A stretch of DNA of 32,000 bases from an archaeon (GCA_024275415.1 JAJRZD010000019.1:1-32000), one strand, 5' to 3'. Shown: positions 5,197-27,101, numbered from the stretch's first letter. Translations and numbers: made by a program. Notes: a model not told the origin generated them from the letters alone.

Positions 5197-6185
5197 CAAT
5201 GAAGCTGTCATATTGAGATAGTCAGCATTAGTTATCAACAGTCCACAGATTAACAAATACGGTGAGCAGCAGTTTCTCAGACACATCGATGCTACGTGGT
5301 CTGACGAAACATGCCCTCATGGACTGGGAGATAGAAGGCACTTGCCGAGTGCATGGCGCGCTACGAGCGTTAATTGGAAATTCTCCAAACTCAGACATCA
5401 CGATAACTTTTCACAGAACCGTATGTAGGACAAAAGACTTGACTATCCACAACGCACTTGATCACTAGTATCACTTCTTTCTAGGAGTGCGATTCAGACG
5501 AAATCCGATTACCTTTCGCTTTTGTTGTCCCTCTCTAACCCGCTTTATGACTGGCTGATTACCGATTCAGTTGGCTTCTTCATTTTCAGGATTGTGTGGT
5601 ATACCTTTCTCGTTTCAATTGCGTATTTTCTTTGCCCAAGAGTTGTAGAGAAAATGCGGGAACGAATGTAAGAACAGGCTCTAAGAGATGAACACTCCCG
5701 TGAATGGACAGAAAGCGACGAGTAGGTTTTAATACAATGGGTCGTTTCGCAATCGCGATGAACCTATTCCGCAGGCTGTTGGCGTGAGTCAACGCTCTAC
5801 GCAATAATCCACGTTCGAAGCGTTATATCCCACGAAAGCAGAGCTTGGCGATCCCGTCATGAGATATGTCTGGCAATGATGCCGCTACACGAGTAGACGG
5901 TCAGGTCGAACACTGTTAACGACTGAAGACAATCTTGTAATTCTTCCGACAAGTTAAATATGGCACCATTGTGATAACCGCCGCACTTGCTGGATTGGTT
6001 GGAGTGAGAACATTGAAGCACATTTCCCTTTGCAATGGCAATTCGCCTTCGCGTGAGTGAGATACGCAATCGGCTATTGATGCCTCAGTGCTACGACATA
6101 TGTGCTAAGTGTTGAACACAGATGCGCTACAGATGCCCTAATAAGTCGAAATTTCCATTTAGGACGAAGCCCGAGGTTTACACTC

Positions 6186-6539
6186 ATGAAATACCTCATC
6201 ATCCTGAACGACCCTCCCTATGGCACGGAACGATCCTACAATGGCATTCGTTTAGCCACCGCACTCAAAAAGAATGATGCAAATGCAGACATTCGAGTTT
6301 TTCTGATTGGAGATGCGGTATCATGTGCGATTGCTGGACAGAAGACGCCTGATGGTTACTACAACTTGGAACGGATGATTCGAGGACTGCTCGTCAAGAA
6401 GGCATCAATCGCGTGTTGTGGGTCGTGCATGGATGCTCGTGGGATTGAAGAACTGTCATTGATATCGGGTGTCGCTCGTGGAACAATGGGTCTTCTTGCT
6501 GAATGGACAGCTGAAGCTACAAAAGTCCTCACTTTCTAA
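6186..6539 (+). CDS. DsrE/DsrF-like (YchN-family) sulfur-relay protein
   Basis: ILNDPPYGTERSYNGIRLA, FLIGDAV, GQKTPDGYYN, CGSCMDARG. Confidence 0.9.
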   Translation: MKYLIILNDPPYGTERSYNGIRLATALKKNDANADIRVFLIGDAVSCAIAGQKTPDGYYNLERMIRGLLVKKASIACCGSCMDARGIEELSLISGVARGTMGLLAEWTAEATKVLTF

Positions 6540-6973
6540 GTATCCGCTTCCGCTCAGAAAGTGAATCTCTCCTGAAACCGTAAGTGCCTGCAAGATGGAA
6601 ACGGTGAACATCCCCTGAGATTTTTACTCCTCCTTTCGAAATAATCTCTTCATCTTGATGAATGGCAACACCATACGATGCAATCCCATCCGAATTCTAG
6701 GTGTGAGGCATCATCATCAAAAACACAAATCGAATTGGAGCAATGTGAATGTAAGGAAACAATCATCGTTTTTGGTACCGTTCACTGCAATCTGGATAAG
6801 TCTGGACACCAGAGTCTTGTCCTCCCAAGGACGGCACTGGTAACGCCCCCGTGTGGTCAGTATCGCGTGTCGTCCGACCTTGTGTCATAGTACTGTCCGG
6901 TCGTATAGAATCACCTACCACGAGATGTCCAGCTATCTCGCAGTTGTTAGCAACCCCGCCCCTCTAAAAAGTT

Positions 6974-6997
6974 AAATATACGAATTATTCGATATTT
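6974..6997. promoter_or_regulatory. Imperfect palindrome AAATAT(A)CGAAT-T-ATTCGATATTT, candidate ArsR operator
   Basis: Lies immediately upstream of the acr3 start; near-perfect inverted repeat. Confidence 0.55.
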
Positions 6998-7013
6998 CAT
7001 CTGTTTCCAGAAG

Positions 7014-8129
7014 GTGAATATAGAATTGGATTCATCATCTCCTCAAGCAGAAATAAAGAGTTCCATCATCGGCTTGAGTACCATTGACAAACTTCTACCA
7101 GTCTGGATACTATTGGCAATGGTTGTTGGTGTGCTTTTGGGATATCTCGTTCCTGGCCTTGCAGAGGCTTTGGACAATTGGAGTATGGGGACCGTTTCGA
7201 TCCCGATAGCGATTGGACTGTTATGGATGATGTATCCAGTCTTAGCAAAAGTGAAGTATGAAGAACTTGGCAAGCTCCGGACTGAGAAACGGATGTTTGG
7301 TATTTCGTTGGCACTCAACTGGATTGTGGGCCCTTTCCTTATGTTCACGTTGGCATGGTTATTCCTCCCTGATTTACCTGAGTATCGCACAGGATTGATA
7401 TTGATTGGTCTTGCCCGCTGTATCGCTATGGTTCTCATCTGGAACATGATGGCCGGAGGCTGCAGCGAATCTTGTGCTGTGCTCGTCGCATTGAACTCGA
7501 TATTTCAGATAACTATGTACAGCTTTGAGGCATGGTTCTTTGTCACATTTCTCCCATCCGTCATCGCGCCTGGTGGGGGGTCTGTCGTTAATGTGTCCGT
7601 CCTTGAGATTGCATGGAGTGTCATCGTATTTCTCGGCTTCCCGTTGGTAGGAGGTGTCATCACACGATGCACCCTGATAAAGCGCCGTTCAAAGGAATGG
7701 TATGATAACGAGTTTGCTCCAAAACTAGGTCCCTATGCGCTGATTGGTCTGCTTTTCACTATCATGGTGATGTTTTCATTGAAAGGTGATGTGATTGTTG
7801 CCCTCCCCTTCGATGTGCTGAGGATTGCAGTACCATTGTTATTCTATTTCGTATTGATGTTCTTGGTTTCGTTCGGGATATCCTACGGACTCCGCTTCAC
7901 TTACGAAAAAAACGTGACAATCTCTTTCACAGCAGCAAGTAACAACTTTGAGCTGGCAATTGCAGTTGCTATCGGGATCTTTGGGATTGGTTCCGGACAA
8001 GCATTAGCTGCGGTTGTTGGTCCCCTCATCGAAGTACCCGTCCTTGTGGGATTAGTATATGTTTCAATGTGGTTGGGAAGGAGGCTATATGGACGACATC
8101 CTACTGAACCAGCACAATGCGAATCCTGA
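7014..8129 (+). CDS. acr3: ACR3-family arsenite efflux transporter
   Basis: IAIGLLWMMYPVLAKV, GLARCIAMVLIWN, SNNFELAIAVAI, GPLIEVPVL. Confidence 0.95.
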   Translation: MNIELDSSSPQAEIKSSIIGLSTIDKLLPVWILLAMVVGVLLGYLVPGLAEALDNWSMGTVSIPIAIGLLWMMYPVLAKVKYEELGKLRTEKRMFGISLALNWIVGPFLMFTLAWLFLPDLPEYRTGLILIGLARCIAMVLIWNMMAGGCSESCAVLVALNSIFQITMYSFEAWFFVTFLPSVIAPGGGSVVNVSVLEIAWSVIVFLGFPLVGGVITRCTLIKRRSKEWYDNEFAPKLGPYALIGLLFTIMVMFSLKGDVIVALPFDVLRIAVPLLFYFVLMFLVSFGISYGLRFTYEKNVTISFTAASNNFELAIAVAIGIFGIGSGQALAAVVGPLIEVPVLVGLVYVSMWLGRRLYGRHPTEPAQCES

Positions 8130-8232
8130 TATGATTGCACACTATTAGAAAGATTGATTTATCGAAATATACAAAGTAAGTTGTTGTAATCACCTGACGA
8201 ATAAATGATGCATTGTAGGATGTTGCACACAA

Positions 8233-8529
8233 ATGTTCAAGGATAAGCAATCTGAATGGCGAGCGCACTTTCATAAAGCATTAAGCAACCCCGAACGACT
8301 CCGTATTGTTGATCTTTTGGCCGATGGGGAGCTGTGTCAGTGCGATATCTTCCCTCAGATTGGGCTTTCGCAATCGACTGTTTCTGCATACCTCACTCAA
8401 CTAGTTCGCGCAGGAATCCTGACAGTTCGGCGCGATGGAACTCGCAAGCTCTATAGCATCAGTGACCCCCAGATACGAGAAATGATCAAGGGAATTCAGT
8501 CCCTTGCAGAAAAGATGGTTTCCGTGTGA
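8233..8529 (+). CDS. arsR: ArsR/SmtB-family repressor
   Basis: KALSNPERLRIV, ELCQCDI (alpha3 CxC site), SQSTVS.YL..L. Confidence 0.9.
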   Translation: MFKDKQSEWRAHFHKALSNPERLRIVDLLADGELCQCDIFPQIGLSQSTVSAYLTQLVRAGILTVRRDGTRKLYSISDPQIREMIKGIQSLAEKMVSV

Positions 8530-8568
8530 TTCGGTTCGCTTTCTGAGATTCGAACAGAACTCGAAATG

Positions 8569-8850
8569 TTATTTATAGAGCACCGCGGCAAGAAGGTCTA
8601 CTATCCTTTCAGCTTCTGTTTCCGTTTCAAAATTCCTTAGAAGTAATCGTCCCGAAGGGAATATGTTGATGATGCTCCCATCAGGCCCTTCAAGAAGTAG
8701 TAATGCCGGGACGCTGACACGTACTGAATACCCCGTAATCTCCAAAATCTTCTTCTCCAAATTCATGAGATCTAGATGCAGACGGTTCACCGGCTTCACC
8801 TCATAGCCCGCCTTCTCTGAGCATATCTTGAAGTGGTATGATTTGGGCAT
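8569..8850 (-). CDS. Small protein resembling the C-terminal domain of long-form MoeB/ThiF
   Basis: ATG 8850 with GGAGG RBS inside the upstream stop region; aligns by eye with the C-terminus of the 26076-27101 protein. Confidence 0.7.
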   Translation of the reverse strand: MPKSYHFKICSEKAGYEVKPVNRLHLDLMNLEKKILEITGYSVRVSVPALLLLEGPDGSIINIFPSGRLLLRNFETETEAERIVDLLAAVLYK

Positions 8851-8852
8851 GT

Positions 8853-9995
8853 TCAACCTCCCTTTAGCACTATTATCTCAGCATCTGAAACGGCATCCTT
8901 TACCCAGTCATAGCCTATGTCTATCTCAGCGGTAGTTATCTTTGCTATATCCGCATGCAAGACCGGATACTTTGGAGGGAGTGAACAACATGATGCAGCG
9001 GCATTGGTGAACTCATACGTTCCAATCTCTCTTGCTTGTTTGGTAATCTCATCCTTGTCATCTCCGATACATGGCCTGATGATGGGCACTCGAGCAATCG
9101 CACTGTCCTCTGCGAAAAGGTTCCGTGTTGTCTGTGAAGCCTGCTCTCCAATTATCTCCCCTGTAATAATGGCATCAGCACCCTCGCGCAAAGCAACCTC
9201 CTGAGCAAGCCTATACATGTTACGTCGGCAGAATACACATGTCATCCTCCGCGGGGCATACTTGAGTACCTCTACGAGATCCTCTCCATGGGGGACAACG
9301 AGCATTTTGACGCTAGTTCCGTGGATGTATTCTGACAGACGCGTTGCCTGCTCAATTGCGACTTTCTTGTTGATGTCGTCTGAGAATGGAGAATTGTCAA
9401 AGTACACGAATATTGGGACACACCCTCTTCTCATCACTTTGAAAGCTGCGACAGGAGAGTCCAAGCCGCTTGATATCATACAAACAACATGTCCTTCAGA
9501 ACCAGTAGGTAGCCCACCGATTCCACATAGTTCCTCGACTGATACAAACACTCTGTCTTGAAGTATGAGCACACTCTGAATGGTTTTGTATTGAGAATGG
9601 TTCGTTCTCAATAGTTCACGAAGATTTCCAATCAATTCCTCATCTCGACTGGAGTCATGATTGTAAATAATCGCATCTGAATGAGGATCAAATGGGTTTT
9701 CAATCACAATGGCTGAACTAGGAGTAGATACTTGTGCTTTGAGATTCGTTTCAATCATCTTTGCCACAGTTCCAACCCCAAAGACACCAGATGCCTTTAG
9801 TGCCATTGTGCCTGCTGCATCACCTCTGATCAAGATGAACCCATGCACATCTTCAACAACTAGCGGGATTGGATTGCCCTCTCGTAGGGCGGCTGACAGG
9901 TTGTTCTTTAGGATTTTAATGAACCTATGCCTTTCACCCTTTCTTTTTTCAGGGATATTCGGTCGTACTAGTAGTGCTGTGCTTGTTGGGATCAC
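8853..9995 (-). CDS. thiI: ThiI-like PP-loop sulfurtransferase (tRNA 4-thiouridine synthase family)
   Basis: GIGGLPTG, SSGLDSPVA, CVFC, TGEIIGEQASQT..NL, IRPCIGDDKDEI, SCC. Confidence 0.85.
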   Translation of the reverse strand: MIPTSTALLVRPNIPEKRKGERHRFIKILKNNLSAALREGNPIPLVVEDVHGFILIRGDAAGTMALKASGVFGVGTVAKMIETNLKAQVSTPSSAIVIENPFDPHSDAIIYNHDSSRDEELIGNLRELLRTNHSQYKTIQSVLILQDRVFVSVEELCGIGGLPTGSEGHVVCMISSGLDSPVAAFKVMRRGCVPIFVYFDNSPFSDDINKKVAIEQATRLSEYIHGTSVKMLVVPHGEDLVEVLKYAPRRMTCVFCRRNMYRLAQEVALREGADAIITGEIIGEQASQTTRNLFAEDSAIARVPIIRPCIGDDKDEITKQAREIGTYEFTNAAASCCSLPPKYPVLHADIAKITTAEIDIGYDWVKDAVSDAEIIVLKGG

Positions 9996-10156
9996 TGGAA
10001 CTCCTCATGGTTCACATTGAGCTAGACTGCTCAGGACTACATGTCTGTGCCTCTGCTTTTTGCTTTTCCATATGGTGCACAAATATAATGTAATCGATAA
10101 GAAGTATCAGATAGAAAGAACTAAGTCTTGTTTTTTCAAGCAACGCTGGAAATCCA

Positions 10157-10966
10157 ATGGATGCCGAAACTAGCGCAAAATTTGAGAAAGCAATGGACTT
10201 TCTTAGAGGTAAGCGGGTTCTTGTCGCTTTCAGTGGTGGTGTGGACAGTGCAGTCGTTGCCGTTATTGCAAAACAAAGTGCAAAAGAGGCACGCCTCCTC
10301 ACAGTGGATAGTATCACGTTCCCACGGCAAGAGCTGGAGGCTGCAGGATTGATCGCAGAAGAGATAGGTCTCCCACTTGAGATAATCCAAGTCGATGAGC
10401 TTGCCAATGAGGACATGGTTCGCAACCCACCAGATCGCTGTTACCACTGTAAGAAGGAGCTCTCGTCCGCATGGCTGAGCAAGGCTGAGCAGATTGGTTT
10501 TGATATCGTTGTGGATGGTACAAACGCCAGCGATGTATCTGGACATCGACCAGGGGCAAAGGCACTGGAAGAAGCTGGTGTCCTCTCGCCGCTGAAGACG
10601 GCTGGGATAACCAAGGACGAGGTACGCGAGTTCGCTCGGAGCAAGGGTCTCTCAGTTGCAAATCGTCCATCAATGGCTTGTCTTTCCAGCAGGTTCCCCT
10701 ATGGCACCGCTATCACTGAGGAGCGAATCAGGATGGTCGATGCAGTAGAGAGAGCAGTCCGGGAATTATTCAAAATCGAATGTGTTCGGGCCAGGTATCA
10801 TGGTGATGTAGTTCGAATAGAGGTGGGCATCGATGAGCGGCCGAAGATGTTTGACACCACTCTTCTTGACCGACTGAATGAACGGGCAAAGGATATCGGA
10901 TTTAGGTATATCACGCTTGACATACAGGGCTACCGCACTGGCTCAATGGATGAAGTCCTGAAATAG
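10157..10966 (+). CDS. larE: LarE-family ATP-dependent sulfur transferase
   Basis: AFSGGVDS, NPPDRCYHCK, DGTNASD..GHRPG, PSMACLSSRFPYG, GYRTGSM. Confidence 0.9.
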   Translation: MDAETSAKFEKAMDFLRGKRVLVAFSGGVDSAVVAVIAKQSAKEARLLTVDSITFPRQELEAAGLIAEEIGLPLEIIQVDELANEDMVRNPPDRCYHCKKELSSAWLSKAEQIGFDIVVDGTNASDVSGHRPGAKALEEAGVLSPLKTAGITKDEVREFARSKGLSVANRPSMACLSSRFPYGTAITEERIRMVDAVERAVRELFKIECVRARYHGDVVRIEVGIDERPKMFDTTLLDRLNERAKDIGFRYITLDIQGYRTGSMDEVLK

Positions 10967-11069
10967 ACACGAGCCTGTGAAAATGTGGGGCAAAGTCCGC
11001 CAATCCACACATTCTCATTCAAAAGAATGAAATAGGGCTTCTACACGATATGCACAATTCAACATAACG

Positions 11070-12077
11070 GTGAAACAGATGCGAAAAGAAAAGAAGATGG
11101 TAGCCACTTTGAGCATCATAGCCATCATTGTTGCTTCTCTCGGCTATCTTTTTTACTATACTCAGACTGCAAAAAAGGACACTCTTGTCATTTCAACGAC
11201 AACAAGCCTCTATGATACAGGTCTACTTGATGAGATTAAGACTACCTATGAGGCAGAGAACCCTCGTGTCATTCTTGCATTCATCTCAGCAGGTACTGGT
11301 ATCGCACTGGAGAACGCTCGGAGAGGCGATGCGGATCTTATCCTTGTGCATTCGCCCTCTCAAGAGTATGAGTTCATGCAGGAAGGATACGGTGTGAACC
11401 GCAAGATTTTTGCGTATAACTTTTTCACGATTGTAGGGCCATCCGAAGATCCTGTAGGAATCTACAATATGTCTCCATTAGATGCACTATCAGCGATTTT
11501 GAAGTATGGCCGTACAAGCCATGATGCCATCTGGGTGAGCAGGGACGACGGGTCTGGGACAAACACCAAAGAGAAGGCTCTCTGGTCGGCGTCGGGCTTC
11601 AATTACTCAGAAATTCAGGGAGAGGACTGGTTTGTTTCATCTGGGTCTGGCATGGGCACTACGTTGAATCTGGCCAACGAACGAGGTTTCTATACCCTGT
11701 CAGACATTGGCACTTACTTGAAGTACAAATCCGATGGACTAATCACCCTTGAGCAGATGGTCGAGGAAGGCGAATCACTGCTCAACGTCTATAGTGTTAT
11801 CGCCGTCAATGCGGAACGAATTTCCACGGTAAAATATGAGGCTGCGATGGACTTTGTCCGATGGCTGGTCGGCGAATCTGCACAAAATCTGATTGCGAAC
11901 TATGGCCATGACGCCTATAACGCCAGTCTGTTCTCTCCCGCTGTGACCGTAATTAAGGATCACTCCCCATCTGAGCTATACCAGTGGATACAAAATTATG
12001 CATTCTTTGAATCAGGAGGAGTTCTCTATGAGTGTCCTCCAGAATGGAGGAATGGAGATTATGGACTATACAACTAG
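11070..12077 (+). CDS. tupA: Tungstate ABC transporter substrate-binding protein
   Basis: N-terminal membrane anchor, STTTSLYDTGLL, GTG.AL, VHSP, SRDDGSGT, GMG.TL, YTLSDIGTY. Confidence 0.9.
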   Translation: MKQMRKEKKMVATLSIIAIIVASLGYLFYYTQTAKKDTLVISTTTSLYDTGLLDEIKTTYEAENPRVILAFISAGTGIALENARRGDADLILVHSPSQEYEFMQEGYGVNRKIFAYNFFTIVGPSEDPVGIYNMSPLDALSAILKYGRTSHDAIWVSRDDGSGTNTKEKALWSASGFNYSEIQGEDWFVSSGSGMGTTLNLANERGFYTLSDIGTYLKYKSDGLITLEQMVEEGESLLNVYSVIAVNAERISTVKYEAAMDFVRWLVGESAQNLIANYGHDAYNASLFSPAVTVIKDHSPSELYQWIQNYAFFESGGVLYECPPEWRNGDYGLYN

Positions 12078-12097
12078 AAACGGATGAGGTGGCTTAT

Positions 12098-12760
12098 ATG
12101 GGACTTCAGGATGAGATTGTAGAGATAACCCTCCGAGCTCTGTCCATATCTGGATTGGCCGCGTTGTTGGCTGCAAGTGTCGGGCTACCGATTGGGATTA
12201 TTCTTGGTATGTACAGATTCAGAGGACGCGACTCGGTCACAGGGGTTTTCAGAGCTCTCATGAGTGTGCCGACCGTGGCACTCGGACTCGTACTTTATCT
12301 GGTCTTCTCACGGTCAGGACCCCTCGGTTTCCTCGAACTTCTCTATACCCCGCTTGCTCTGGTCATCGGACAGTCCATCCTTGTCGTCCCTATCATCGTG
12401 AGCATAACCTCTGAAACCATCTCGAACGTCGACCCGTTGATACGTGATTTGTCTCGAACGTTGGGTGCAGATGAGCGTGCTGCTGCTGCTTCGGTGTTAC
12501 GAGAGTCGTTGGGCGGGATCGTTCTGGCTCTCTCCGCGAGCTTCAGCCGTGCAATATCCGAATTGGGTGTGGCTCTCATGCTTGGTGGGAACATCCAAGG
12601 ACTGACACGAGTCCTCACTACAGCAATCGCTCTGGAAACGACACGCGGTGAGATTCTGCTCGGGCTTGGTTTGACAGTGATACTTCTCACTCTCATGATT
12701 GCCTTCAATTTGCTTCTGAATCAGATTGAGAAAAAGGTGAAGTGGTGGTTATGGGAATAG
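12098..12760 (+). CDS. tupB: Tungstate ABC transporter permease
   Basis: SVPTVALGL, LLYTP.A.VIGQ, FSRAISELG, GGNI.G.TRVLTTAIALET. Confidence 0.9.
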   Translation: MGLQDEIVEITLRALSISGLAALLAASVGLPIGIILGMYRFRGRDSVTGVFRALMSVPTVALGLVLYLVFSRSGPLGFLELLYTPLALVIGQSILVVPIIVSITSETISNVDPLIRDLSRTLGADERAAAASVLRESLGGIVLALSASFSRAISELGVALMLGGNIQGLTRVLTTAIALETTRGEILLGLGLTVILLTLMIAFNLLLNQIEKKVKWWLWE

Positions 12761-13824
12761 TCGAGCTAAGGAATGTCACAGTGGACTTTGGTTAACAAAG
12801 GGCATTGGATAGTGTGAACATCCGAGCAGACCATGGCGAGATGCTCAGCCTTATCGGGCCAAACGGCGCTGGAAAGACCACCGCACTGCGAGTGATGGCC
12901 GGGTTACTCGAACCAACAAGCGGCGTCCTCCTCTTTGAGGACAAAATCCTTTCCGGGAACCAACTGCTTGGTCTTCGTAGACAAGCAACTCTAGTGTTTC
13001 AGAAACCCCTGATATTCAGCACCACAGTTTCAAAGAATGTGGCATATGGTCTCAGGATCAGGAATGTGTCCGGGATTGAAACTGATAGACGTGTCAAGGA
13101 GGCTCTGGATCTAGTCCAGCTCTATCCGATGCGTGACCGATTTGCACGGAACCTCTCAGGTGGAGAACAAAAACGGCTGAATCTCGCGATGGCTATCGCA
13201 ATCGAACCAGATATTCTCCTCCTAGACGAGCCTACAGCATTCTTAGACCCCGATAGTAGAAGGATAGTCGAGAACGTTCTCAAAGACATCAATAGGGAAC
13301 AGGGATCCACGATTGTAATATCGACCCATGACATGATGCAGGCTGATATCCTTACTCGAAAGGCTGTCATGATCAAGGATGGTAAGATTATCGGGAGTGG
13401 GTCTGCAACAGAGATGATTCGAGACAGGTTAGAAACTCTCATCTTCGAGGACGCTACCCTCAACGTCTTCTCCGGCGTAGCACAATGTATGAACGGGAGT
13501 GCACATGGGTCACGTCTCGTTCAAGTACGCATCAATGATGTGCTTTCCATAGAGGCGATTACTGATCGAGAAGGTGATGTCACGGTTCGCATACCGCCAG
13601 AAGATATCGTCCTGTCCCGTGGGAGCATCCTTTCTAGTGCACGGAACACGCTCAGAGGAAAAGTCACAGATGTGGACATCAAGAACGCCACTGCTCTGAT
13701 TACGGTGGATGTGGGAGTTAATCTGGTGACTCAAATAACGAGAGGCTCCCTTGAAAGGCTCCATGTAGCAATAGGGGATGATGTAGATGTGACCTTCAAG
13801 GCATCATCCGTCCGAGTCTACTAA
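12751..13824 (+). CDS. tupC: Tungstate ABC ATPase with C-terminal TOBE domain(s); in-frame TAA at 12793-12795
   Basis: MGIVELRNVTVDFG*QRALDSV..GPNGAGKTT, LSGGEQ, LLDEP, STH; C-terminal SSARN.L.GKV. Confidence 0.85.
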
Positions 13825-13886
13825 ATACCGAAATGCATGACCAAACATAACAGTTATCTTGGATAGATGGAGAATGAGGCCAAATC

Positions 13887-14861
13887 ATGACCGCCGATAA
13901 AGGGATTGACCGCATCAATACGGAGAGTAGTGCGCCGCTTGTTGACTCATACTCTCGTCCGATCGATTACCTTAGGATATCCCTTACCCAACGATGCAAT
14001 CATGCCTGTTTCTTCTGCCACCACGAAGGAGAGATAGGCATGGGATGCGAGATGACCGCCGAGGAAATCGAGAATCTTGTGCGAGTTGCTAACCGCAGGG
14101 GGATTCGAAGGATAAAGCTGACTGGGGGAGAAGCACTTGTTCGGGATGACATTGTTGAAATCGTCAGCAGATTGGCGCCTCTGACAGATGATCTGTCAAT
14201 TACTACTAACGGTTCGTTCTTAGAACACCTTGCTCGTCCCCTGAAAGAATCTGGGCTTGACAGAGTGAATGTGAGCCTCCACACCCTCAAGCCCGTTCTC
14301 CATGAACGTATCACGGGTCGCGCTAACATCGATTCCGTCATGCGAGGTATCGAGACCTCGATACAGGCCGGTCTGAACCCCGTCAAGATCAATATGGCTG
14401 TGCTCAGAGGACTGAACGATGACGAGATACAGGACCTCATGGAGTATGCAGGTGGTATTGGGGCAGTGCTACAGCTTATCGAGCTCCAGTTGTTCTCTAA
14501 GGATGATGAGTGGGCTCAATACTGGATGGACTTGACTGAGATTGAGAGCGACTTGGCAGGTCGGGCACTGACCGCTACTCAACGTTCCCTTCACGGTCGA
14601 AAGACCTACACTCTGCCTGTTTCAAACGGAACAGTACAGGTTGAAGTAGTCCGTCCAAATCATAATCAATCCTTCTGCCAGCGGTGTACCCGGCTTCGCG
14701 TGACATCTGATGGCAAACTGAAGCCTTGTCTGCTTAGGCAGGATAACCTGGTGGAAGTGCATTCGCTTCTTGGAAGCCAATCACTTGACGAGATGGTGAA
14801 TGACGCGCTTGAACATGCTGTGAGCTTACGAAAACCATTTTGGAGAGGTAAGAGCAAATGA
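13887..14861 (+). CDS. moaA: GTP 3',8-cyclase (radical SAM)
   Basis: YLRISLTQRCNHACFFCH, KLTGGE, FCQRCTRLRVTSDGKLKPCL. Confidence 0.95.
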   Translation: MTADKGIDRINTESSAPLVDSYSRPIDYLRISLTQRCNHACFFCHHEGEIGMGCEMTAEEIENLVRVANRRGIRRIKLTGGEALVRDDIVEIVSRLAPLTDDLSITTNGSFLEHLARPLKESGLDRVNVSLHTLKPVLHERITGRANIDSVMRGIETSIQAGLNPVKINMAVLRGLNDDEIQDLMEYAGGIGAVLQLIELQLFSKDDEWAQYWMDLTEIESDLAGRALTATQRSLHGRKTYTLPVSNGTVQVEVVRPNHNQSFCQRCTRLRVTSDGKLKPCLLRQDNLVEVHSLLGSQSLDEMVNDALEHAVSLRKPFWRGKSK

Positions 14862-15274
14862 TTGCATTGTCTGATGTGGACTTCTCAATCGATGAGGTCA
14901 TCTCGAAAACGCGCCGTCCATCCATGGGTGCAGTTGTGACGTTCCTAGGCACTGTCAGAGACCTCACTGACGGGAACGAGGTTGAAAAGCTGGAATTTGA
15001 GGCTGACACTGAGATGGCGGTGAAGGAACTTGAACAGATTCGTCAGGAGATAATCTCCAGATTTGGCGTGACTGATGTTTCAATCATACATCGGACAGGA
15101 GTTCTGAATCCTGGTGAGAACATCGTGGTCATCGCAGTAGGGGCTTCCCACCGTGACGAGGCATTCAAGGGCTGTCGATACGCGATAGAGGAGCTGAAGA
15201 AAAGAGCGATGATATGGAAGAAAGAATTCCTCAAGGATAGAAGCTATTGGGTCGGTGGTGTGAACGATGAGTGA
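14858..15274 (+). CDS. moaE: Molybdopterin synthase catalytic subunit
   Basis: GAVVTFLGTVR, IIHRTG.L..GE, SHRDEAF, IWKKE. Confidence 0.95.
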   Translation: MIALSDVDFSIDEVISKTRRPSMGAVVTFLGTVRDLTDGNEVEKLEFEADTEMAVKELEQIRQEIISRFGVTDVSIIHRTGVLNPGENIVVIAVGASHRDEAFKGCRYAIEELKKRAMIWKKEFLKDRSYWVGGVNDE

Positions 15275-15713
15275 GGATCCCATCAGAATGGTCGATGTCG
15301 CATCAAAGCCAATCTCATATCGAATGGCTGAGGCAGTGGGTGAGCTTATTCTTGAGCCACGAACCATTGCTCAAATCCAGGACAGGACTGTGAAGAAAGG
15401 GGATGTCCTGACAGTTTCTGAAATTGCTGCGATACAAGCAGCAAAGCGTACCTCGGATATCATCCCTCTTTGTCATCAGATTCCGCTCTCATCAGTACAG
15501 GTTTCATTCGATGTCCTTGAGGATCGAGTTCGAGCAATATGTCAGGTGGTCGCAAACCATACGACTGGCGTGGAGATGGAAGCATTGGTAGGAGTTTCGA
15601 CTGCACTGCTATCGATCTGGGATATGGTAAAGTATCTTGAGAAGGATGAACAGGGACAGTATCCCCATTCGCGGATTGATGGTATTAGGGTGACGAAGAA
15701 AATCAAGGAGTGA
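15267..15713 (+). CDS. moaC: Cyclic pyranopterin monophosphate synthase
   Basis: MVDV..K, KKGDVL, IPLCH, TGVEMEAL, IWDMVK. Confidence 0.95.
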   Translation: MSEDPIRMVDVASKPISYRMAEAVGELILEPRTIAQIQDRTVKKGDVLTVSEIAAIQAAKRTSDIIPLCHQIPLSSVQVSFDVLEDRVRAICQVVANHTTGVEMEALVGVSTALLSIWDMVKYLEKDEQGQYPHSRIDGIRVTKKIKE

Positions 15714-16219
15714 TATTATTGCCTGATGAGCATAGAAGGGATCAAAAGGTTAGTGTTGGCTTCGCTATTCTCACTACCAGTGATAGTAGGACCAAAGAGA
15801 ACGACCAAACGGGCCGTATTGCACACGAACTGATTACGTCGGAGCATCACCAAGTTGTTGAATATGATGTAGTACGAAATCGTGCTGAAGACATCCTTGA
15901 GAGAGTTGAAACTTATCTTCAGAACAAAGATGTCCGCGTCATCATCACAAGTGGAGGAACTGGTGTCGGCTCTCGAGACCTAACCGTTAGAACATTGATG
16001 CCAAAGTTCGAGAAGCATCTTGTTGGTTTTGGTGAGCTTTTTCGTCGAATCAGTTATGATGAGATTGGGGTTCCCGGCATCTACAGTCAGGCATCAGCGG
16101 GTCTCATTGGGACTACTGTCATCTATTGCTTACCCGGCTCGAAGAACGCCATGAGGACTGCACTATCAAAGATAATACTGCCAGGAATTGGACACCTGAT
16201 TTGGGAGATAGACAGATGA
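15710..16219 (+). CDS. moaB: Molybdopterin adenylyltransferase MoaB/MogA family
   Basis: LTTSDSRT..ND.TG, ITSGGTG...RDLT, GFGELFR, LPGS. Confidence 0.95.
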   Translation: MILLPDEHRRDQKVSVGFAILTTSDSRTKENDQTGRIAHELITSEHHQVVEYDVVRNRAEDILERVETYLQNKDVRVIITSGGTGVGSRDLTVRTLMPKFEKHLVGFGELFRRISYDEIGVPGIYSQASAGLIGTTVIYCLPGSKNAMRTALSKIILPGIGHLIWEIDR

Positions 16220-17430
16220 AGAAAATGGATCCTTTCAAGCTTCTGGTTTCTCAAGAGAAGGCGGAGGAATTGCTTTTGGAACACTGCCTTCCACTGAGTG
16301 ACACAGAACAAATTGCTATCAGTGCTGCGACCGGCCGTGTGTTGGCAAGTGACCTCAAAGCTGATCGTGATGTGCCACCTTTTGATAGAGCTGCCATGGA
16401 TGGGTATGCGGTCATTGCAGAGGACACTTTTGGTGCTCAGGACTCGGATGTACTCCTTACTCTGAAGGGCGTGATTCATGCTGGGGAGGTATCCGAATCG
16501 GAAGTGACTCGTGAAACATGTCTTCAAATAGCCACCGGCTCTCCCATGCCCGCGGGTGCAGATGCAGTCGTTATGGTAGAATATACAGAGGAACGAGGAG
16601 ATCAGATACTGGTCACACGGCCTGTTTACCCTGGTGCTAATGTTTCAAAGGCCGGTGAAGACATCAAGAAGAATGAGGTTGTGCTTCCTGCGGGGAGTTT
16701 TCTAACACCTGCAAGGATTGGAGCAGTTGCAGCTCTCGGTATGACCTCCATTGAGGTCTATAGGAAGCCCATGGTCGCTGTCATTCCTACAGGCAGGGAG
16801 GTTGCTCCCCTAGGTGAGCCTCTTAAGCCTGGACACATCTATGATGTGAACTCATATACCCTCGAGTCCGTCCTGACATCAAATGGTGCCGAAGTTACGC
16901 GGATGCCTGTTGTTACTGACGAGAAGGATGCACTGAAGCAAGCCATACAGCAAAGCCTAGGAACTGACCTTGTCGTTCTCTCGGGAGGAAGCTCTGTAGG
17001 CGAGAAGGATCTTCTGGCTGGGATTCTCGAAGAGATGGGCGAAGTCCTTTTCCATGGAGTCCAGATTAAACCTGGCAAACCAACGCTCTTTGGCATGGTA
17101 CAAGGCACTCCTGTTGTTGGGATGCCAGGATATCCCACCTCCTGTCTTAGTAATGCATACATCTTCCTGATTCCTGCGATTCGTAAGATGGGCAGACTCC
17201 CCCATCATTCAGGACACCATGTTTCTGCCAAGCTTGGGAAGAGAATTGTGTCATCATCTGGGAGAAAGCAGTTTCTTACGGTTCGGATTGAGAACGGTAT
17301 TGCTCACCCTGTGTACAAGCACTCAGGGGCGATAACCAGCATGGCCAAGGCTGACGGGTATATCATCCTCCCTGTGAACCTCGATGTCATCGAGGAAGGT
17401 GAAGAAGTACAAGTCACACTGTTCGAATGA
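16216..17430 (+). CDS. moeA: Molybdopterin metal insertase (gephyrin-like)
   Basis: VPPFDRAAMDGYAV, IATGSPMPAGADAVVMVE, SGGSSVG, IKPGKP, LPG-like MPGYP. Confidence 0.95.
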   Translation: MKKMDPFKLLVSQEKAEELLLEHCLPLSDTEQIAISAATGRVLASDLKADRDVPPFDRAAMDGYAVIAEDTFGAQDSDVLLTLKGVIHAGEVSESEVTRETCLQIATGSPMPAGADAVVMVEYTEERGDQILVTRPVYPGANVSKAGEDIKKNEVVLPAGSFLTPARIGAVAALGMTSIEVYRKPMVAVIPTGREVAPLGEPLKPGHIYDVNSYTLESVLTSNGAEVTRMPVVTDEKDALKQAIQQSLGTDLVVLSGGSSVGEKDLLAGILEEMGEVLFHGVQIKPGKPTLFGMVQGTPVVGMPGYPTSCLSNAYIFLIPAIRKMGRLPHHSGHHVSAKLGKRIVSSSGRKQFLTVRIENGIAHPVYKHSGAITSMAKADGYIILPVNLDVIEEGEEVQVTLFE

Positions 17431-17638
17431 CTCTTTTGTCTTAACATCAGTCAAGCCAATCTTTGTATCGAACTCTCGCGCTAGACAATTTTCGAACCAT
17501 GTGAAATGAAAACCGACGTGTCAGTACTGGTGTGTTGGAGATTCGAAGACAACAATCAAAGAGGAAACAACAGATATACGGTCCTTATTTTGTCTATAAA
17601 CGGAATTGTTTTTGTGCACCGAGGTGGTGAATTGTTTC

Positions 17639-18055
17639 ATGCCTCGACAAAAAAGACACCGGTTTGTTCACAGGGAGCCACCTATCTCGGTCTACAAGCC
17701 AGCTGGAATCCCGCTTAAAGAACTTGATGAAATACTAATAACATTGGATGAGTACGAGGCAATCCGACTGGCTGATTTCAAGGGGATGAATCAAAGAGAG
17801 GCATGCTCTGTTATGCACATCAGCCAGCCTACGTTCCACCGAATCCTTGCTTCTGCGCGTCACAAGATCGCCAAGGGTATTGTGGAGGGTCATGCACTTC
17901 GTATTGAGGGCGGGAGGTATATCCTTGCAGACGGCTCAGGTGGATTCCAATGTACCGGCTGTGGTACACGACTGGACATGCAGAAGGATGATGGGCGTCC
18001 ATGTCCCAACTGTGGTTCTAAGAGGATACGCTGGCAAAGATGGAATCGCCCTTAG
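17639..18055 (+). CDS. DUF134 (UPF0251) DNA-binding protein with a C-terminal CxxC..CxxC zinc ribbon
   Basis: MPRQKRHR, DEYEAIRL.D..GM.Q.EA...M.ISQPTFHRIL.SARHKIA; CTGC and CPNC; GAGGTG RBS. Confidence 0.9.
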   Translation: MPRQKRHRFVHREPPISVYKPAGIPLKELDEILITLDEYEAIRLADFKGMNQREACSVMHISQPTFHRILASARHKIAKGIVEGHALRIEGGRYILADGSGGFQCTGCGTRLDMQKDDGRPCPNCGSKRIRWQRWNRP

Positions 18056-18080
18056 ATTGTGAAGGATATCATGTTATTAT

Positions 18081-18956
18081 CTAGCTCCTTGAATAAACAG
18101 CCAACTTTTTGATCCTTATCCATATTCTCCTCAGCATCTGTGTGATTTCGTGATCGGGTGTAAACTCAGGTAAGGTCTTTCGCTGAACCATCGATTCAGT
18201 CATGATCCTATCAAATGGTATCCTCCCGAGAACTTCTATGCCGTTCTCTCTACAGTACTTCACGATTTCATCTGTGTTCTTTGGATTGATGTCAAATTTG
18301 TTGATGATCACGGTTGAAAGGATATGGAACTGCTTCATGAGCCCCAGCACCCTCTTCATATCATGGATTCCTGATAGAGTGGGTTCAGTTACCACAACCC
18401 CTACTTTCAATCCCGCAACTGTGGCGATGACTGGACATCCTATCCCCGGTGACCCATCGATCAGAATTATATCCCGATTCTCACTCTGAGCCATAATTTG
18501 GGCATGCCTCCTTACCTCAGTGACTAATTTTCCAGAGTTGCCCTGACCTGGTAGGAGTTTAGCGTGGGAAAGTGAACCATACCTAGTCTTCGATTGAAAC
18601 AAGTTCCCCGAAACGCGGTCATGCATGGATATTGCTTTCTCCGGACAGACAAACTCGCAGACCCCACACCCTTCGCATGCTATGGGATCAATCTCAGGAA
18701 CGCGTATTGCGTCAAAACGACAGGACTCCTCACACAACCCGCATTGAGTGCAGACATCCTTGTCGATGGTAGCAGTCTTCGAGCCAATGAATTCGCTTGT
18801 TTCTATTATCTCTGGCGTCAATAGGATATGAAGATCAGGGGCATCAACATCACAATCTGCAATGATGGCATCACCTGCAAAGGCAGCAAATGATGCTACA
18901 ATTGTTGTCTTACCCGTACCGCCTTTTCCACTAACAATAGCGATTTCACTGACCAT
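18081..18956 (-). CDS. MinD-superfamily P-loop ATPase with inserted 2x[4Fe-4S] ferredoxin (COG1149)
   Basis: SGKGGTGKTT, DCDVDAPD, CTQCGLC..SC, CEGCGVC..VC, DGSPGIGCPV. Confidence 0.9.
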   Translation of the reverse strand: MVSEIAIVSGKGGTGKTTIVASFAAFAGDAIIADCDVDAPDLHILLTPEIIETSEFIGSKTATIDKDVCTQCGLCEESCRFDAIRVPEIDPIACEGCGVCEFVCPEKAISMHDRVSGNLFQSKTRYGSLSHAKLLPGQGNSGKLVTEVRRHAQIMAQSENRDIILIDGSPGIGCPVIATVAGLKVGVVVTEPTLSGIHDMKRVLGLMKQFHILSTVIINKFDINPKNTDEIVKYCRENGIEVLGRIPFDRIMTESMVQRKTLPEFTPDHEITQMLRRIWIRIKKLAVYSRS

Positions 18957-19788
18957 TTGTTACTTCCCTCTTGATACGTTTCCATGTTTCTTGGAATTCT
19001 TTTCGGTATCTGGGCATCTCTTGGACGAACGGGATTCCGCGGGAGTATAGTTCTGCAATCTCCTTACTGAACGGGATCCTCATGAGGATGGGGATGCCTT
19101 TCTGCTCAAGAAACCCCACAGTTTCCTGATCTCCAATCCCATCTCTGTTAATAATAACCCCATGTGGTGTTCCAAGCTCGGCAATCACCTCAAGTGTCAT
19201 CGAAAGGTAGTGCAAGCCGAAAGGTGTGGGCTCAGTCACTAGGATTACATAGTCACACTCCTTTACAGTTTCTATCAGCGTACAGGAAGTACCTGGTGGT
19301 GCATCAAAGATTACTGACTCGTTATCATTCGCTTGAGCCTTAACGGCCTTGATTACTGGAACCGCCAATGGTTCTCCCACATTGAGGGATCCGTACGTGA
19401 GTTTTACCTCGTCAGTCGAACCCGAAACGATGGAGCCAATGGCCCGCTCCACCTCTGTAATTGCTTTCTGTGGGCAAGCCAGCATACATCCTCCACAGGA
19501 GTGACAAATCTCATCATATATCATGACTTTGGTCTTGCCCACAAAGATAGCATTGAACTGACAAAAGTCTACACATTTCCCGCAAAGTGTACACTCCCCC
19601 ATATTTACTCTAGGTGCCGGAACAGTAACTTCAGTCGTTACAGGTTCCTTCGGATGCAAAAGGGTATGTGCATTTGGCTCCTCAACATCGCAGTCAAACA
19701 GATGTGCATCATCCACTGATAATGCCAGATTCACGGCGACCGTTGTCTTGCCTGTACCTCCCTTTCCACTTGCCACTGCCACTCTCAA
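18946..19788 (-). CDS. Second COG1149 MinD-like ATPase with ferredoxin insert
   Basis: ASGKGGTGKTT, DCDVEEPN, CTLCGKC..FC, CHSCGGC..AC, DAPPGTSC, EPTPFG; likely TTG start at 19788. Confidence 0.9.
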   Translation of the reverse strand: MRVAVASGKGGTGKTTVAVNLALSVDDAHLFDCDVEEPNAHTLLHPKEPVTTEVTVPAPRVNMGECTLCGKCVDFCQFNAIFVGKTKVMIYDEICHSCGGCMLACPQKAITEVERAIGSIVSGSTDEVKLTYGSLNVGEPLAVPVIKAVKAQANDNESVIFDAPPGTSCTLIETVKECDYVILVTEPTPFGLHYLSMTLEVIAELGTPHGVIINRDGIGDQETVGFLEQKGIPILMRIPFSKEIAELYSRGIPFVQEMPRYRKEFQETWKRIKREVTNGQ

Positions 19789-19818
19789 ATCAGCCCTCTC
19801 CTCTACAAATGGCAAGTC

Positions 19819-20187
19819 CTACTTGTGATGTGCGTCGGCACAGCCCTCTGTAAGCTCGTCCAGTTCTCCTTTGTTATATGCATCAAGAGTTCGGTCAACG
19901 ACATTACTGTTTGCCCTGAGAACTGCTACATTCGCATCTTGGAAGCTCTGGATTCCGCGAGGACCCATCCCCCGGACGATGATTACATTCGGGTTCAAAC
20001 CCAGAATATTATCATGTGCATGTCCCCGTCCACCTCGGTGCGATCCAGTGTTAGACTGGATATTTGAGGAAATCACTTTTCCCGCTCCATCCAAATCAAA
20101 GACCGCAAAATAGGTCGCTCTTCCAAAATGTTCCGCAATGCTTTCCGCATCTGGACTGTCAGTAGGTATTATCACTCTGGGAGTCAT
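19819..20187 (-). CDS. NifB/NifX-family (COG1433) protein
   Basis: HFGRATYF, GMGPRG, His-rich loop and tail. Confidence 0.85.
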   Translation of the reverse strand: MTPRVIIPTDSPDAESIAEHFGRATYFAVFDLDGAGKVISSNIQSNTGSHRGGRGHAHDNILGLNPNVIIVRGMGPRGIQSFQDANVAVLRANSNVVDRTLDAYNKGELDELTEGCADAHHK

Positions 20188-20189
20188 TT

Positions 20190-20672
20190 CTAGTAAGCCC
20201 CTCGTCTACCTCTTCCTCTGCCCCATCCGCGTCCTCGCCCTCCTCTTCCATATCCTCCCCCGAAACCTCTTCCAGCACCTAGTCCTACCTCCATGGTTCC
20301 TCGTCCAACTCCTAGTCCTCTGTGGGAGGGACCGGGGGTCTCAATAGGCGTTAGAGTGCCTTTCTTATAGGCCTCGATTGCGTCGCGAATTGATGAGAAC
20401 ACCCCAGTCAGGACCTTTATTCCGCCATCTTGCAGAGCAGGAAGTGCATTTGGTCCGACGCTTCCGGTGATTACAGCCTCCACGCCGTGGGAAAGAACCG
20501 CCTGTGCGGCTCGTATTCCCGCCCCTCCTGATGCATTCATTCCCTCATTTGGTATGGCTTCGAAGTCCATTGTTTCAGGGTCGACTATTATGAAGTAATT
20601 ACACCGTCCAAATCTGGGATTCACTGGAGCATCCAGATTTGTCCCTGATGATGAAACGCATATTTTCGTCAT
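20190..20672 (-). CDS. NifB/NifX-family (COG1433) protein with a Gly/Arg-rich tail
   Basis: RFGRCNYF, GGAGIRAAQ, TGSVGPNA, tail GRGFGGGYGRGGRGRGWGRGRGRRG. Confidence 0.9.
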   Translation of the reverse strand: MTKICVSSSGTNLDAPVNPRFGRCNYFIIVDPETMDFEAIPNEGMNASGGAGIRAAQAVLSHGVEAVITGSVGPNALPALQDGGIKVLTGVFSSIRDAIEAYKKGTLTPIETPGPSHRGLGVGRGTMEVGLGAGRGFGGGYGRGGRGRGWGRGRGRRGAY

Positions 20673-26075: not shown

Positions 26076-27101
26076 TTGAATGACTCCCGTCAAGATCGAC
26101 TCGAGATGTACTCTCGCATGCTGGCATTGCGTGATTTTGATGAAGAAGATCTCAGGTCTGTTGAAGGTACCAGCATCACCGTTGTTGGAGCAGGTGGGCT
26201 TGGAAGTCCAATACTTCAGTTGCTGACCTCAATCGGCTTCGGAAAGATTCGTATCATTGATTATGATGTGGTAGAACTCTCTAACCTCCAGCGACAGACC
26301 ATATACAATTATGATGACATTGGCATCCCGAAGGTAGATGCAGCCGTCGCGAACCTTTCAAAGCAGAATCCTTTCGTGCAGTTCTAACCGATTGCCTTGG
26401 CAATCAAAGAGAGTAATGCTCTGGATCTCCTCAAAGGTACCGACATAATCGTTGACGGACTGGACACAATGACTGCTCGAAGGGCTGTCAATCAGGCAAG
26501 TTATGCTCTGAAGATTCCTTATGTTTACGCAGGTGCCATAGAATACTACGCTAACATTTCCACTTTCATACCTGACGAAACGGGATGCCTTTATTGCCTG
26601 GTTGGGGATATGGAAGATAACCCTGAGAATACGTGTGCCAATGTTGGGGTGTCGCCCATGTTGCTTTCACTGGTAGGAGCGATTGAGGTTCGGGAAGCGG
26701 TTTCATTGGCAACAGGAAGGCAACCGCGACTGGCTGGGAAATTAATGCATGCCGATATTGATGTGCTTGGATTTGACACATTTGATATTGCTCGCTCCGA
26801 TGCATGCCCGGTATGTTCTGCTGCACCCTCCACGTCATCATCAGAATCCGATGAGCTCAGTATCACCATGTTATGTACGAATAGTTTCAGCATATCCCCT
26901 TCGAAACCCTTGGCTCTCGACCTTGAGAGCGTTGTTACACGAGTTGAAACGCAACGCCTACTCAGGAGGAAAACTTCTGTCATCATCAAATTTGCCTCCG
27001 GGATATCGGTGACCCTGATGAATACCGGAAGTGCCGTCATCAAGGGTGCAAAAGATAAAGATGAAGCTCTTTCAGTCTATCACACTCTCGTTTCGCACTA
27101 G
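26076..27101 (+). pseudogene. moeB: MoeB/ThiF (E1-like) adenylyltransferase with C-terminal extension, interrupted by in-frame TAA at 26385-26387
   Basis: GAGGLG, DYDVVELSNLQRQ, IVDGLD, CLYC, TCANVGV, CPVC; reads VQF*PIALAI in frame across the stop. Confidence 0.8.

Follow-up and report, generated by a model that had tools for sequence, protein, structure and literature searches.

Here we present an analysis of a gene cluster in a 32,000-nt stretch of archaeal DNA (GCA_024275415.1, JAJRZD010000019.1:1-32000), hereafter the window, in which genes for two PP-loop sulfur-transfer enzymes, a ThiI-like protein and LarE, lie back to back at the head of a set of tungstate-uptake and molybdopterin-synthesis genes (positions 8,569 to 17,430). 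An earlier note on this DNA, made from the sequence alone, had regarded the cluster as a candidate sulfur-insertion hub, in which an orphan LarE, the ThiI paralog, or both might supply sulfur for pterin or tungsten-cofactor maturation. Our examination leads to another reading, which we consider probable: three individually orthodox modules stand side by side as clients of one sulfur supply centred on an E1 enzyme, and LarE does not feed the pterin. This reading draws on the identities of the genes, on their genome-wide complements, on domain homology, and on the patterns of neighbourhood and of phyletic occurrence; the shared supply and the chemistry of a cysteine relay are what we infer from them. 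Genomes, contigs and loci are cited below by number (G, C and L).

Organization of the locus

The gene map drawn in the earlier note was borne out by the listing of open reading frames and by Pfam and NCBIfam scans. The ThiI-like gene and larE diverge across a 161-bp spacer, and larE is followed on the same strand by tupABC-moaA-moaE-moaC-moaB-moeA, all in the places given for them and extending to position 17430 (Table 1). The two larger gaps in this series also agreed, the one between larE and tupA, put at about 100 bp, measuring 103 bp with tupA starting at its GTG (112 or 130 bp if counted to the next two ATGs), and the one between tupC and moaA, put at about 60 bp, measuring 62 bp. None of larA, larB, larC or the ThiS/MoaD-family genes was found on the window's contig, in agreement with what had been reported for the window. 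The cluster's start at 8569 takes in one more gene, small95, on which the note had been silent.

Table 1. Genes and features of the cluster and of related positions in the window
Feature	Coordinates	Strand	Evidence and remarks
DsrE/TusD-like protein	6102-6539	+	PF02635 4.6e-25
small95, 93 aa	8569-8850	-	predicted single TBP-like domain; invariant Cys10; translationally coupled to ThiI-like gene
ThiI-family PP-loop sulfurtransferase paralog, eroded THUMP	8853-9995	-	PF02568
Divergent intergenic region ThiI-like/larE, 161 bp	9996-10156		
LarE, ATP-dependent sulfur insertase of nickel-pincer cofactor synthesis, CxxC-C ([4Fe-4S]) class	10157-10966	+	TIGR00268
TupA-like tungstate-binding protein	11070-12077	+	PBP_like_2; TTTS motif; N-terminal hydrophobic segment
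TupB-like ABC permease	12032-12760	+	NF038017 190.9 bits (cut-off 100)
ABC ATPase with TOBE (TupC/WtpC-like)	12805-13824	+	ABC_tran and TOBE domains
MoaA, GTP 3',8-cyclase	13887-14861	+	NF001199 373.9 bits (cut-off 231); TIGR02668 (archaeal MoaA) 345.4 bits (cut-off 325)
MoaE, large subunit of molybdopterin synthase	14858-15274	+	PF02391 3.7e-39
MoaC, cyclic pyranopterin monophosphate synthase	15267-15713	+	NF008999 204.4 bits (cut-off 171)
MoaB/MogA-type molybdopterin adenylyltransferase domain protein	15710-16219	+	PF00994; TIGR00177 95.9 bits (cut-off 85.35)
MoeA, metal insertase	16126-17430	+	MoeA_N, MoCF_biosynth, MoeA_C; NF011068 468.8 bits; true start probably later than the listed TTG at 16126
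MoeB/ThiF-type E1	26106-27101	+	PF00899 200 bits; full-length match to subfamily NF009123

LarE and the Lar pathway

The window LarE matches TIGR00268 with 271.7 bits (cut-off 150) over residues 19-264 of 269, and its PP-loop, FSGGVDS at residues 25-31, conforms to the SGGxDS ATP-binding motif (PMC9283937). The cysteines that the earlier note had read in CYHC and ACLSSR are present, as C95-x-x-C98 and as C175 within ACLSSR. Alignment to the L. plantarum LarE structures (5UDQ and related) is full-length, with E 8e-42; the Ser and RxR phosphate-binding residues, as defined in PMC9283937, are kept, and C175 falls opposite the residue that follows C176 of L. plantarum, a shift of one residue. T. 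maritima LarE, of the [4Fe-4S] class with the CxxC-C pattern, has a one-residue shift of the third cysteine (PMC9283937).

The description of this LarE as an orphan holds within the window only. The assembly comprises 127 contigs and is 92.9% complete, and larA, larB, larC and moaD, whose presence elsewhere the earlier note had left to be searched for, were all found on other contigs: three larA-like genes, one larB and one larC, in addition to the moaD described below. The window gene is the sole LarE of the assembly, no other match exceeding the TIGR00268 cut-off. In a 41-genome sample of the phylum, LarE occurs in 35 genomes and is accompanied by LarC in 35/35, and three genomes lack LarE, LarB and LarC jointly. 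Clusters of larE-larC(-larB) occur in several genomes of the phylum outside the family; in the family itself the lar genes are generally scattered.

We surveyed the family in 86 genomes; these are related, and the counts taken over them are not corrected for phylogeny. Two LarE paralogs are found, LarE-A, at least 62% identical to the window protein and present in 33 genomes, and LarE-B, 46-57% identical to it. A quick maximum-likelihood search united the two in one clade (SH-like approximate likelihood ratio test, SH-aLRT, 99), whose sister is the LarE encoded in larE-larC-larB clusters, and within this clade LarE-A is monophyletic (support 93) with short branches. By its place in the tree, the window LarE belongs to an ordinary archaeal LarE lineage and evolves slowly. 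Furthermore, G000, G010 and G011, which have no LarE besides LarE-A, contain both LarB and LarC, and therefore LarE-A must serve the nickel-pincer pathway in those genomes. A LarE-like stretch with three in-frame stops, 1.3 kb from small95 in another genome (G069:C154:3780-4421), looks like a decayed copy; an intact LarE-A fragment is located on a contig of G069 other than C154.

The ThiI-like protein and small95

The sole Pfam domain detected in the ThiI-like protein is PF02568, over residues 165-357 (3e-52), and TIGR00342 is matched with 191.7 bits, below its cut-off of 264.5 and over model positions 148-363 only. The THUMP domain (PF02926) was not matched in the Pfam scan. The protein aligns end to end, at 46% identity, with a THUMP-bearing ThiI (P0118), and its THUMP region can still be aligned to THUMP-bearing ThiI at low identity; the AlphaFold2 (AF2) confidence score, pLDDT, falls below 50 at residues 86-113. 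Cysteines of the Fe-S type, C253, C256 and C336/C337, are invariant. A canonical THUMP+ThiI gene lies elsewhere in the assembly, on contig C18.

The ATG of small95 is placed 2 nt past the TGA of the ThiI-like gene, behind a GGAGG. Wherever it was found, small95 directly follows a ThiI-family gene, including THUMP-bearing ThiI genes and Bathyarchaeial and Sifarchaeial contigs, and its Cys10 is invariant in 39 sequences. No significant Pfam or NCBIfam family was matched, only TBP models at E 0.06-0.13, and BLASTP of small95 against the E1 gave no match, the homology between the two being visible by profile comparison only. Using hhalign, small95 and the C-terminal domain of E1 were matched with 95% probability and E 3e-8, with the cysteines aligned, and 20 column-shuffled control profiles reached at most 1% probability. 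In three genomes the small95 profile also matches longer frames, of about 350 aa, which are candidate E1 genes. The AF2 model of small95 has a pLDDT of 91.6, and the top Foldseek matches are mostly TBP half-domains (probability 0.97-1.0, with weak E of 0.04-0.1 and nothing at E ≤0.001). Because Foldseek gave only weak matches, the assignment of the fold depends on hhalign and on the published architecture of an E1 core with a TBP-like domain, for which neighbourhood links to molybdenum cofactor (MoCo) genes and ThiI are also known (PMC2948915). By profile comparison, small95 is a homolog of the E1 C-terminal domain, and its fold is predicted to be TBP-like.

The tungsten-cofactor operon and the canonical sulfur route

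TupA scores 176 bits against NF041772 (cut-off 400) and carries a TTTS anion-binding motif, which we take to be diagnostic for TupA; TupB scores 147 bits against NF041773, below its cut-off, and the best NCBIfam match of the ABC ATPase is WtpC, at 218 bits and likewise below cut-off. Since all three fall short of the NCBIfam equivalog cut-offs, the metal specificity of the Tup transporter is a matter of prediction. MoaE, MoaB and MoeA score above the Pfam cut-offs for their domains. The assembly encodes eight AOR-family enzymes and one bis-pyranopterin guanine dinucleotide enzyme, and given the TTTS motif and the AOR-family enzymes the label "tungsten" for the operon is reasonable. In a relative (G001:C98, L054:5959-6429), the tupA beside larE is truncated to about 160 aa and contains an in-frame TGA, and an intact tupA is located on contig C225.

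The usual route for dithiolene sulfur, consisting of MoaD, MoaE and a MoeB-type E1, is encoded, the E1 with the interrupted frame described below. Five genes of the ThiS/MoaD family lie on other contigs, all ending in Gly-Gly, and the one on C27 has the FPPVGGG tail of a classic MoaD; the gene neighbours of the five were uninformative. The sole ThiF-family E1 of the assembly, on which the earlier note had also been silent, is a window gene about 9 kb downstream of the operon. Its frame is interrupted by an in-frame TAA at 26385-26387, where five relatives have GAA, GAG or GAC (Glu/Asp), and this TAA may represent a true nonsense mutation, a variant within the population or a mistake in the assembly. 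E1 directly follows moeA in G002, G004 and G010, the ThiI-small95 pair is inserted between moeA and E1 in G008 and G092, and in G083 the pair follows moeA, with E1 about 4 kb past moeA.

Conservation of the neighbourhood

Conservation of the larE-tup/moa linkage in relatives, a point on which the earlier note had made its hypothesis depend, was found in part. LarE-A, ThiI-small95, or both lie within 13 kb of tup-moa in 11/33 MoaA-positive genomes, distributed over four genera and five arrangements, and by this recurrence the adjacency is conserved in a loose sense. The exact abutment of larE and tupA on the same strand is confined to G000 and G001, in which larE, divergent from ThiI, leads into tupABC-moa. 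In the remaining arrangements, larE diverges from a ThiI-small95-tupABC-moa series (G084, G086), diverges directly from tupABC-moa (G085, G088, G045), or converges on moeA (G054), or small95 converges on moeA without larE (G008, G083, G092). The linkage persists between genera that share only 50-70% protein identity and have different flanking genes. In the 41-genome sample the adjacency had seemed restricted to one genus, a view that the 86 family genomes and the loci taken from them do not bear out.

The neighbourhood also comes apart. The modules are unlinked in G010, G042, G065 and G068 and are 756 kb apart on one chromosome in G081; larE and tupA are separated by 10 kb in G004; and in G005, where synteny is kept to either side, the slot after larE is filled by transporters and a DNA methylase in place of tup-moa. 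None of the tup-moa clusters examined contains moaD.

In G045 a THUMP-bearing ThiI-small95 pair is followed, after 2.7 kb, by a LarA-family gene (L159:9932-11218), and the LarE-A of this genome abuts tup-moa 240 kb away.

Orthologs of the DsrE/TusD-like gene of the window adjoin the ThiI-small95-LarE module in G054 and on a Sifarchaeial contig; in G081 the distance to LarE is 0.9 kb, and in G008 the ortholog lies past tupA by about 1.7 kb. This gene is a possible further sulfur-relay component. DsrE/TusD-like genes at a distance of 1-2 kb or less from the module, spread over several genera and the Sifarchaeial contig, were recorded at 6102-6539 of the window, L070:6288-6647, L077:8436-8849 and L162:372-800.

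LarE loci in other prokaryotes

To place the family in a wider context, 80 LarE loci from diverse prokaryotes were surveyed for neighbours within 8 kb. LarB was found in 21/80 and LarC in 16/80. An E1 gene was found in 10/80, from at least three lineages, and eight of these ten loci belong to one bacterial clade, in which E1, a ThiI-like PP-loop domain and NFACT-R share a single open frame, at most about 620 aa long, with LarE directly after it. In the locus scanned with Pfam (L109; frame at about 6060-7920), a cysteine-desulfurase-like gene is divergent from the fused frame and a gene with a MoCF_biosynth domain lies downstream. The fused frame measures about 614-623 aa in L107, L109, L113, L122, L132 and L137 (Deferrimicrobiaceae and relatives), and the frames of L114 and L127 are shorter. 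No similarity was found between small95 and the NFACT-R domain of these fusions. Additionally, LarE, ThiI, ThiF and ThiS are listed among the genes gathering around Thi4 (PMC13325395). From the bacterial E1-ThiI-like-LarE clusters and the Thi4 gatherings, it follows that the assembly of sulfur-relay genes with their clients is a recognised pattern.

Interpretation of the gene cluster

In the reading that we favour, each of the three modules would do its orthodox work. The ThiI-like protein and small95 would constitute a PP-loop/Fe-S sulfurtransferase with an eroded THUMP and its coupled, 93-aa, TBP-like Cys partner. LarE would thiolate the pyridinium-dicarboxylate precursor of the nickel-pincer nucleotide cofactor, serving a Lar pathway that is complete but dispersed, and the tup-moa genes would import tungstate and make the molybdopterin that supplies the eight AOR-family tungstoenzymes. 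Dithiolene sulfur would arrive by the canonical route, as a thiocarboxylate on the C27 MoaD, made by the MoeB-type E1 and used by MoaE. The sole E1 would be the centre of a sulfur supply, and of its regulation, that all three modules have in common; the Cys-bearing TBP-like domain appears both fused to E1 and free beside ThiI. It is most likely because of this common supply that the modules recur together in the family.

The hypothesis of the earlier note would instead make this type of LarE, or the ThiI-like enzyme with small95, or both, direct sulfur donors in the maturation of molybdopterin or the tungsten cofactor. They might thiolate an intermediate of the pterin, load MoaD, or add sulfur to the cofactor once it is complete, which would be a new function for a PP-loop sulfurtransferase. 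Several patterns are in its favour. MoaA is encoded in 23/33 of the genomes with LarE-A as against 3/36 of those with LarE-B only (7/17 without LarE), the genes recur beside tup-moa in four genera, ThiI-small95-tupABC-moa are co-directional in G084 and G086, ThiI-small95 lie between moeA and E1 or after moeA in three further genomes (G008, G092 and G083, respectively), and moaD is outside every tup-moa cluster examined. Against it stands the behaviour of the genes when taken across the family. LarE-A occurs without MoaA in 10 genomes, including two of high completeness (G005, 95%; G017, 98%), and 10 MoaA-positive genomes are without LarE-A, 7 of these with no LarE found; therefore neither gene needs the other, and it is unlikely that LarE sulfurates the pterin directly. 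The same independence is seen for small95, which occurs without MoaA in 6 genomes and is missing from 16 that are MoaA-positive. Moreover, there are genomes, the assembly studied here among them, that retain LarA, LarB and LarC with LarE-A as their one LarE; MoaD, MoaE and E1 are all encoded; the Ser/RxR substrate-phosphate residues are retained; and the short branch is unlike what is expected for a protein of changed function. We consider a direct delivery of sulfur by these enzymes very improbable. What stands of the hub proposed earlier is thus the neighbourhood of sulfur enzymes around tungstate and molybdopterin genes, which is recurrent and non-random in the family; the sulfur-insertion mechanism proposed for it does not.

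The main rival to a common sulfur supply is plain co-inheritance, in which the modules were adjacent in the ancestor of the family without any functional link and have been inherited or lost as one variable island, the present arrangements being produced by local inversions and deletions. Such a history would account for the confinement of the direct larE-tupA abutment to G000 and G001, for the replacement of tup-moa by transporters and a DNA methylase in the syntenic slot of G005, for the 10 kb between larE and tupA in G004, for the modules that are unlinked in four genomes (G010, G042, G065, G068) and separated by 756 kb in G081, and for the general dispersal of lar genes in the family. It is less easily reconciled with a linkage kept across genera at 50-70% protein identity despite differing flanks, or with the independent association of E1, ThiI-like and LarE in bacteria, and the published record for other archaea, in which E1 is linked to MoCo and ThiI genes (PMC2948915), suggests more than inertia. 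On balance, inheritance without function seems to us an unlikely explanation.

The reading of three modules on one sulfur supply has its own difficulties. The association of LarE-A with MoaA is strong (23/33 versus 3/36) and would also be predicted by a direct role, and the positions of the ThiI-small95 pair are suggestive in the same sense, since it heads the tup-moa operon on the same strand in G084 and G086, lies between moeA and E1 in G008 and G092 and comes just after moeA in G083. The shared supply is deduced from gene order, and co-inheritance on one variable island gives the same pattern; the genomes compared are kin, over which the counts carry no phylogenetic correction. Also, if the TAA in the window E1 is real, the canonical sulfur route may be impaired in this organism. 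All these points weigh against the three-module reading, which we still hold to be the probable one.

A more specific proposal, which we put forward tentatively and regard as rather unlikely, concerns the TBP-like Cys domain. By analogy, this domain, as small95 or fused to E1, might be a sulfur-relay module playing the part that rhodanese has in E. coli ThiI and in MOCS3/MoeZ, so that in Thorarchaeota a single line, running through it and through E1-made thiocarboxylates, would feed tRNA or small-molecule thiolation, the [4Fe-4S] LarE and MoaD. If true, it would explain why ThiI, LarE and tungsten-cofactor genes travel together.

The new element in these findings is modest: a free, TBP-like Cys protein that is coupled to ThiI and homologous to the tail of E1, with LarE as a regular neighbour. 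That E1 is linked to MoCo and ThiI genes was known before (PMC2948915); the small95-ThiI pairing, and the presence of LarE in such a neighbourhood, were not found described in the literature examined. The failure of the idea that LarE sulfurates molybdopterin spares a costly reconstitution on the wrong enzyme. Furthermore, with a small Cys domain that is fused to E1 and coupled to ThiI, and with LarE and a tungsten-cofactor operon repeatedly gathering around both, the family provides a compact natural experiment on the sulfur donor of [4Fe-4S] LarE and on the role of the TBP-like domain, which is widespread on archaeal and bacterial E1.

Other features of the window

An Rfam scan of positions 8000-18200 returned zero matches at E up to 1, and therefore no MoCo riboswitch. 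A promoter and terminator scan, built for bacteria, gave signals at the level of shuffled sequence, and for the 161-bp spacer it was uninformative. An inverted repeat, CATTCT-N8-AGAATG, is present at 11010-11029 in the spacer between larE and tupA, without a T-run after it. Downstream of moeA, the interval 17606-20672 holds a DUF134/zinc-ribbon gene next to moeA, on which two MinD-type P-loop ATPases with ferredoxin inserts and two NifX/NifB-like (Nitro_FeMo-Co) genes converge, a metal-cluster handling set directly beside the cofactor operon.

Comparison with known systems

The LarE of the window resembles T. maritima LarE and the L. plantarum structures in its PP-loop, CxxC-C triad, Ser/RxR residues and full-length homology, and in the presence of LarA, LarB and LarC in the genome; its activity is predicted from this resemblance. 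It differs from T. maritima LarE in that its gene is not clustered with larB and larC, its partner being instead a ThiI-family gene, to which several relatives add tup-moa, and in that its family has a second LarE paralog. The tup-moa genes share with bacterial TupABC and moaA-moaE-moaC-moaB-moeA the same domain families, the TTTS of TupA, the TOBE domain of the ATPase, MoaA and MoaC above equivalog cut-offs, and clients of the AOR family; unlike in the bacterial system, the Tup proteins are under the equivalog cut-offs and moaD is outside the operon.

Rhodanese persulfide-relay domains occur on E. coli ThiI and on E1 enzymes of the MoeZ/MOCS3/Uba4 type. Like these, small95 and the E1 tail represent a small Cys-bearing domain attached to both kinds of host, the ThiI-type PP-loop enzyme and the MoeB-type E1; their fold, predicted to be TBP-like, is unrelated to rhodanese, and the analogy in sulfur carriage is speculation. 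Another counterpart is the published TBP-like E1 (PMC2948915), to which the window E1 corresponds in having an E1 core followed by a C-terminal domain of about 85 aa, in standing directly after moeA in relatives, and in having a ThiI-family gene nearby. What distinguishes the window from that system is the free copy of the TBP-like domain, small95, with its invariant N-terminal Cys, without a GG tail, and coupled to ThiI.

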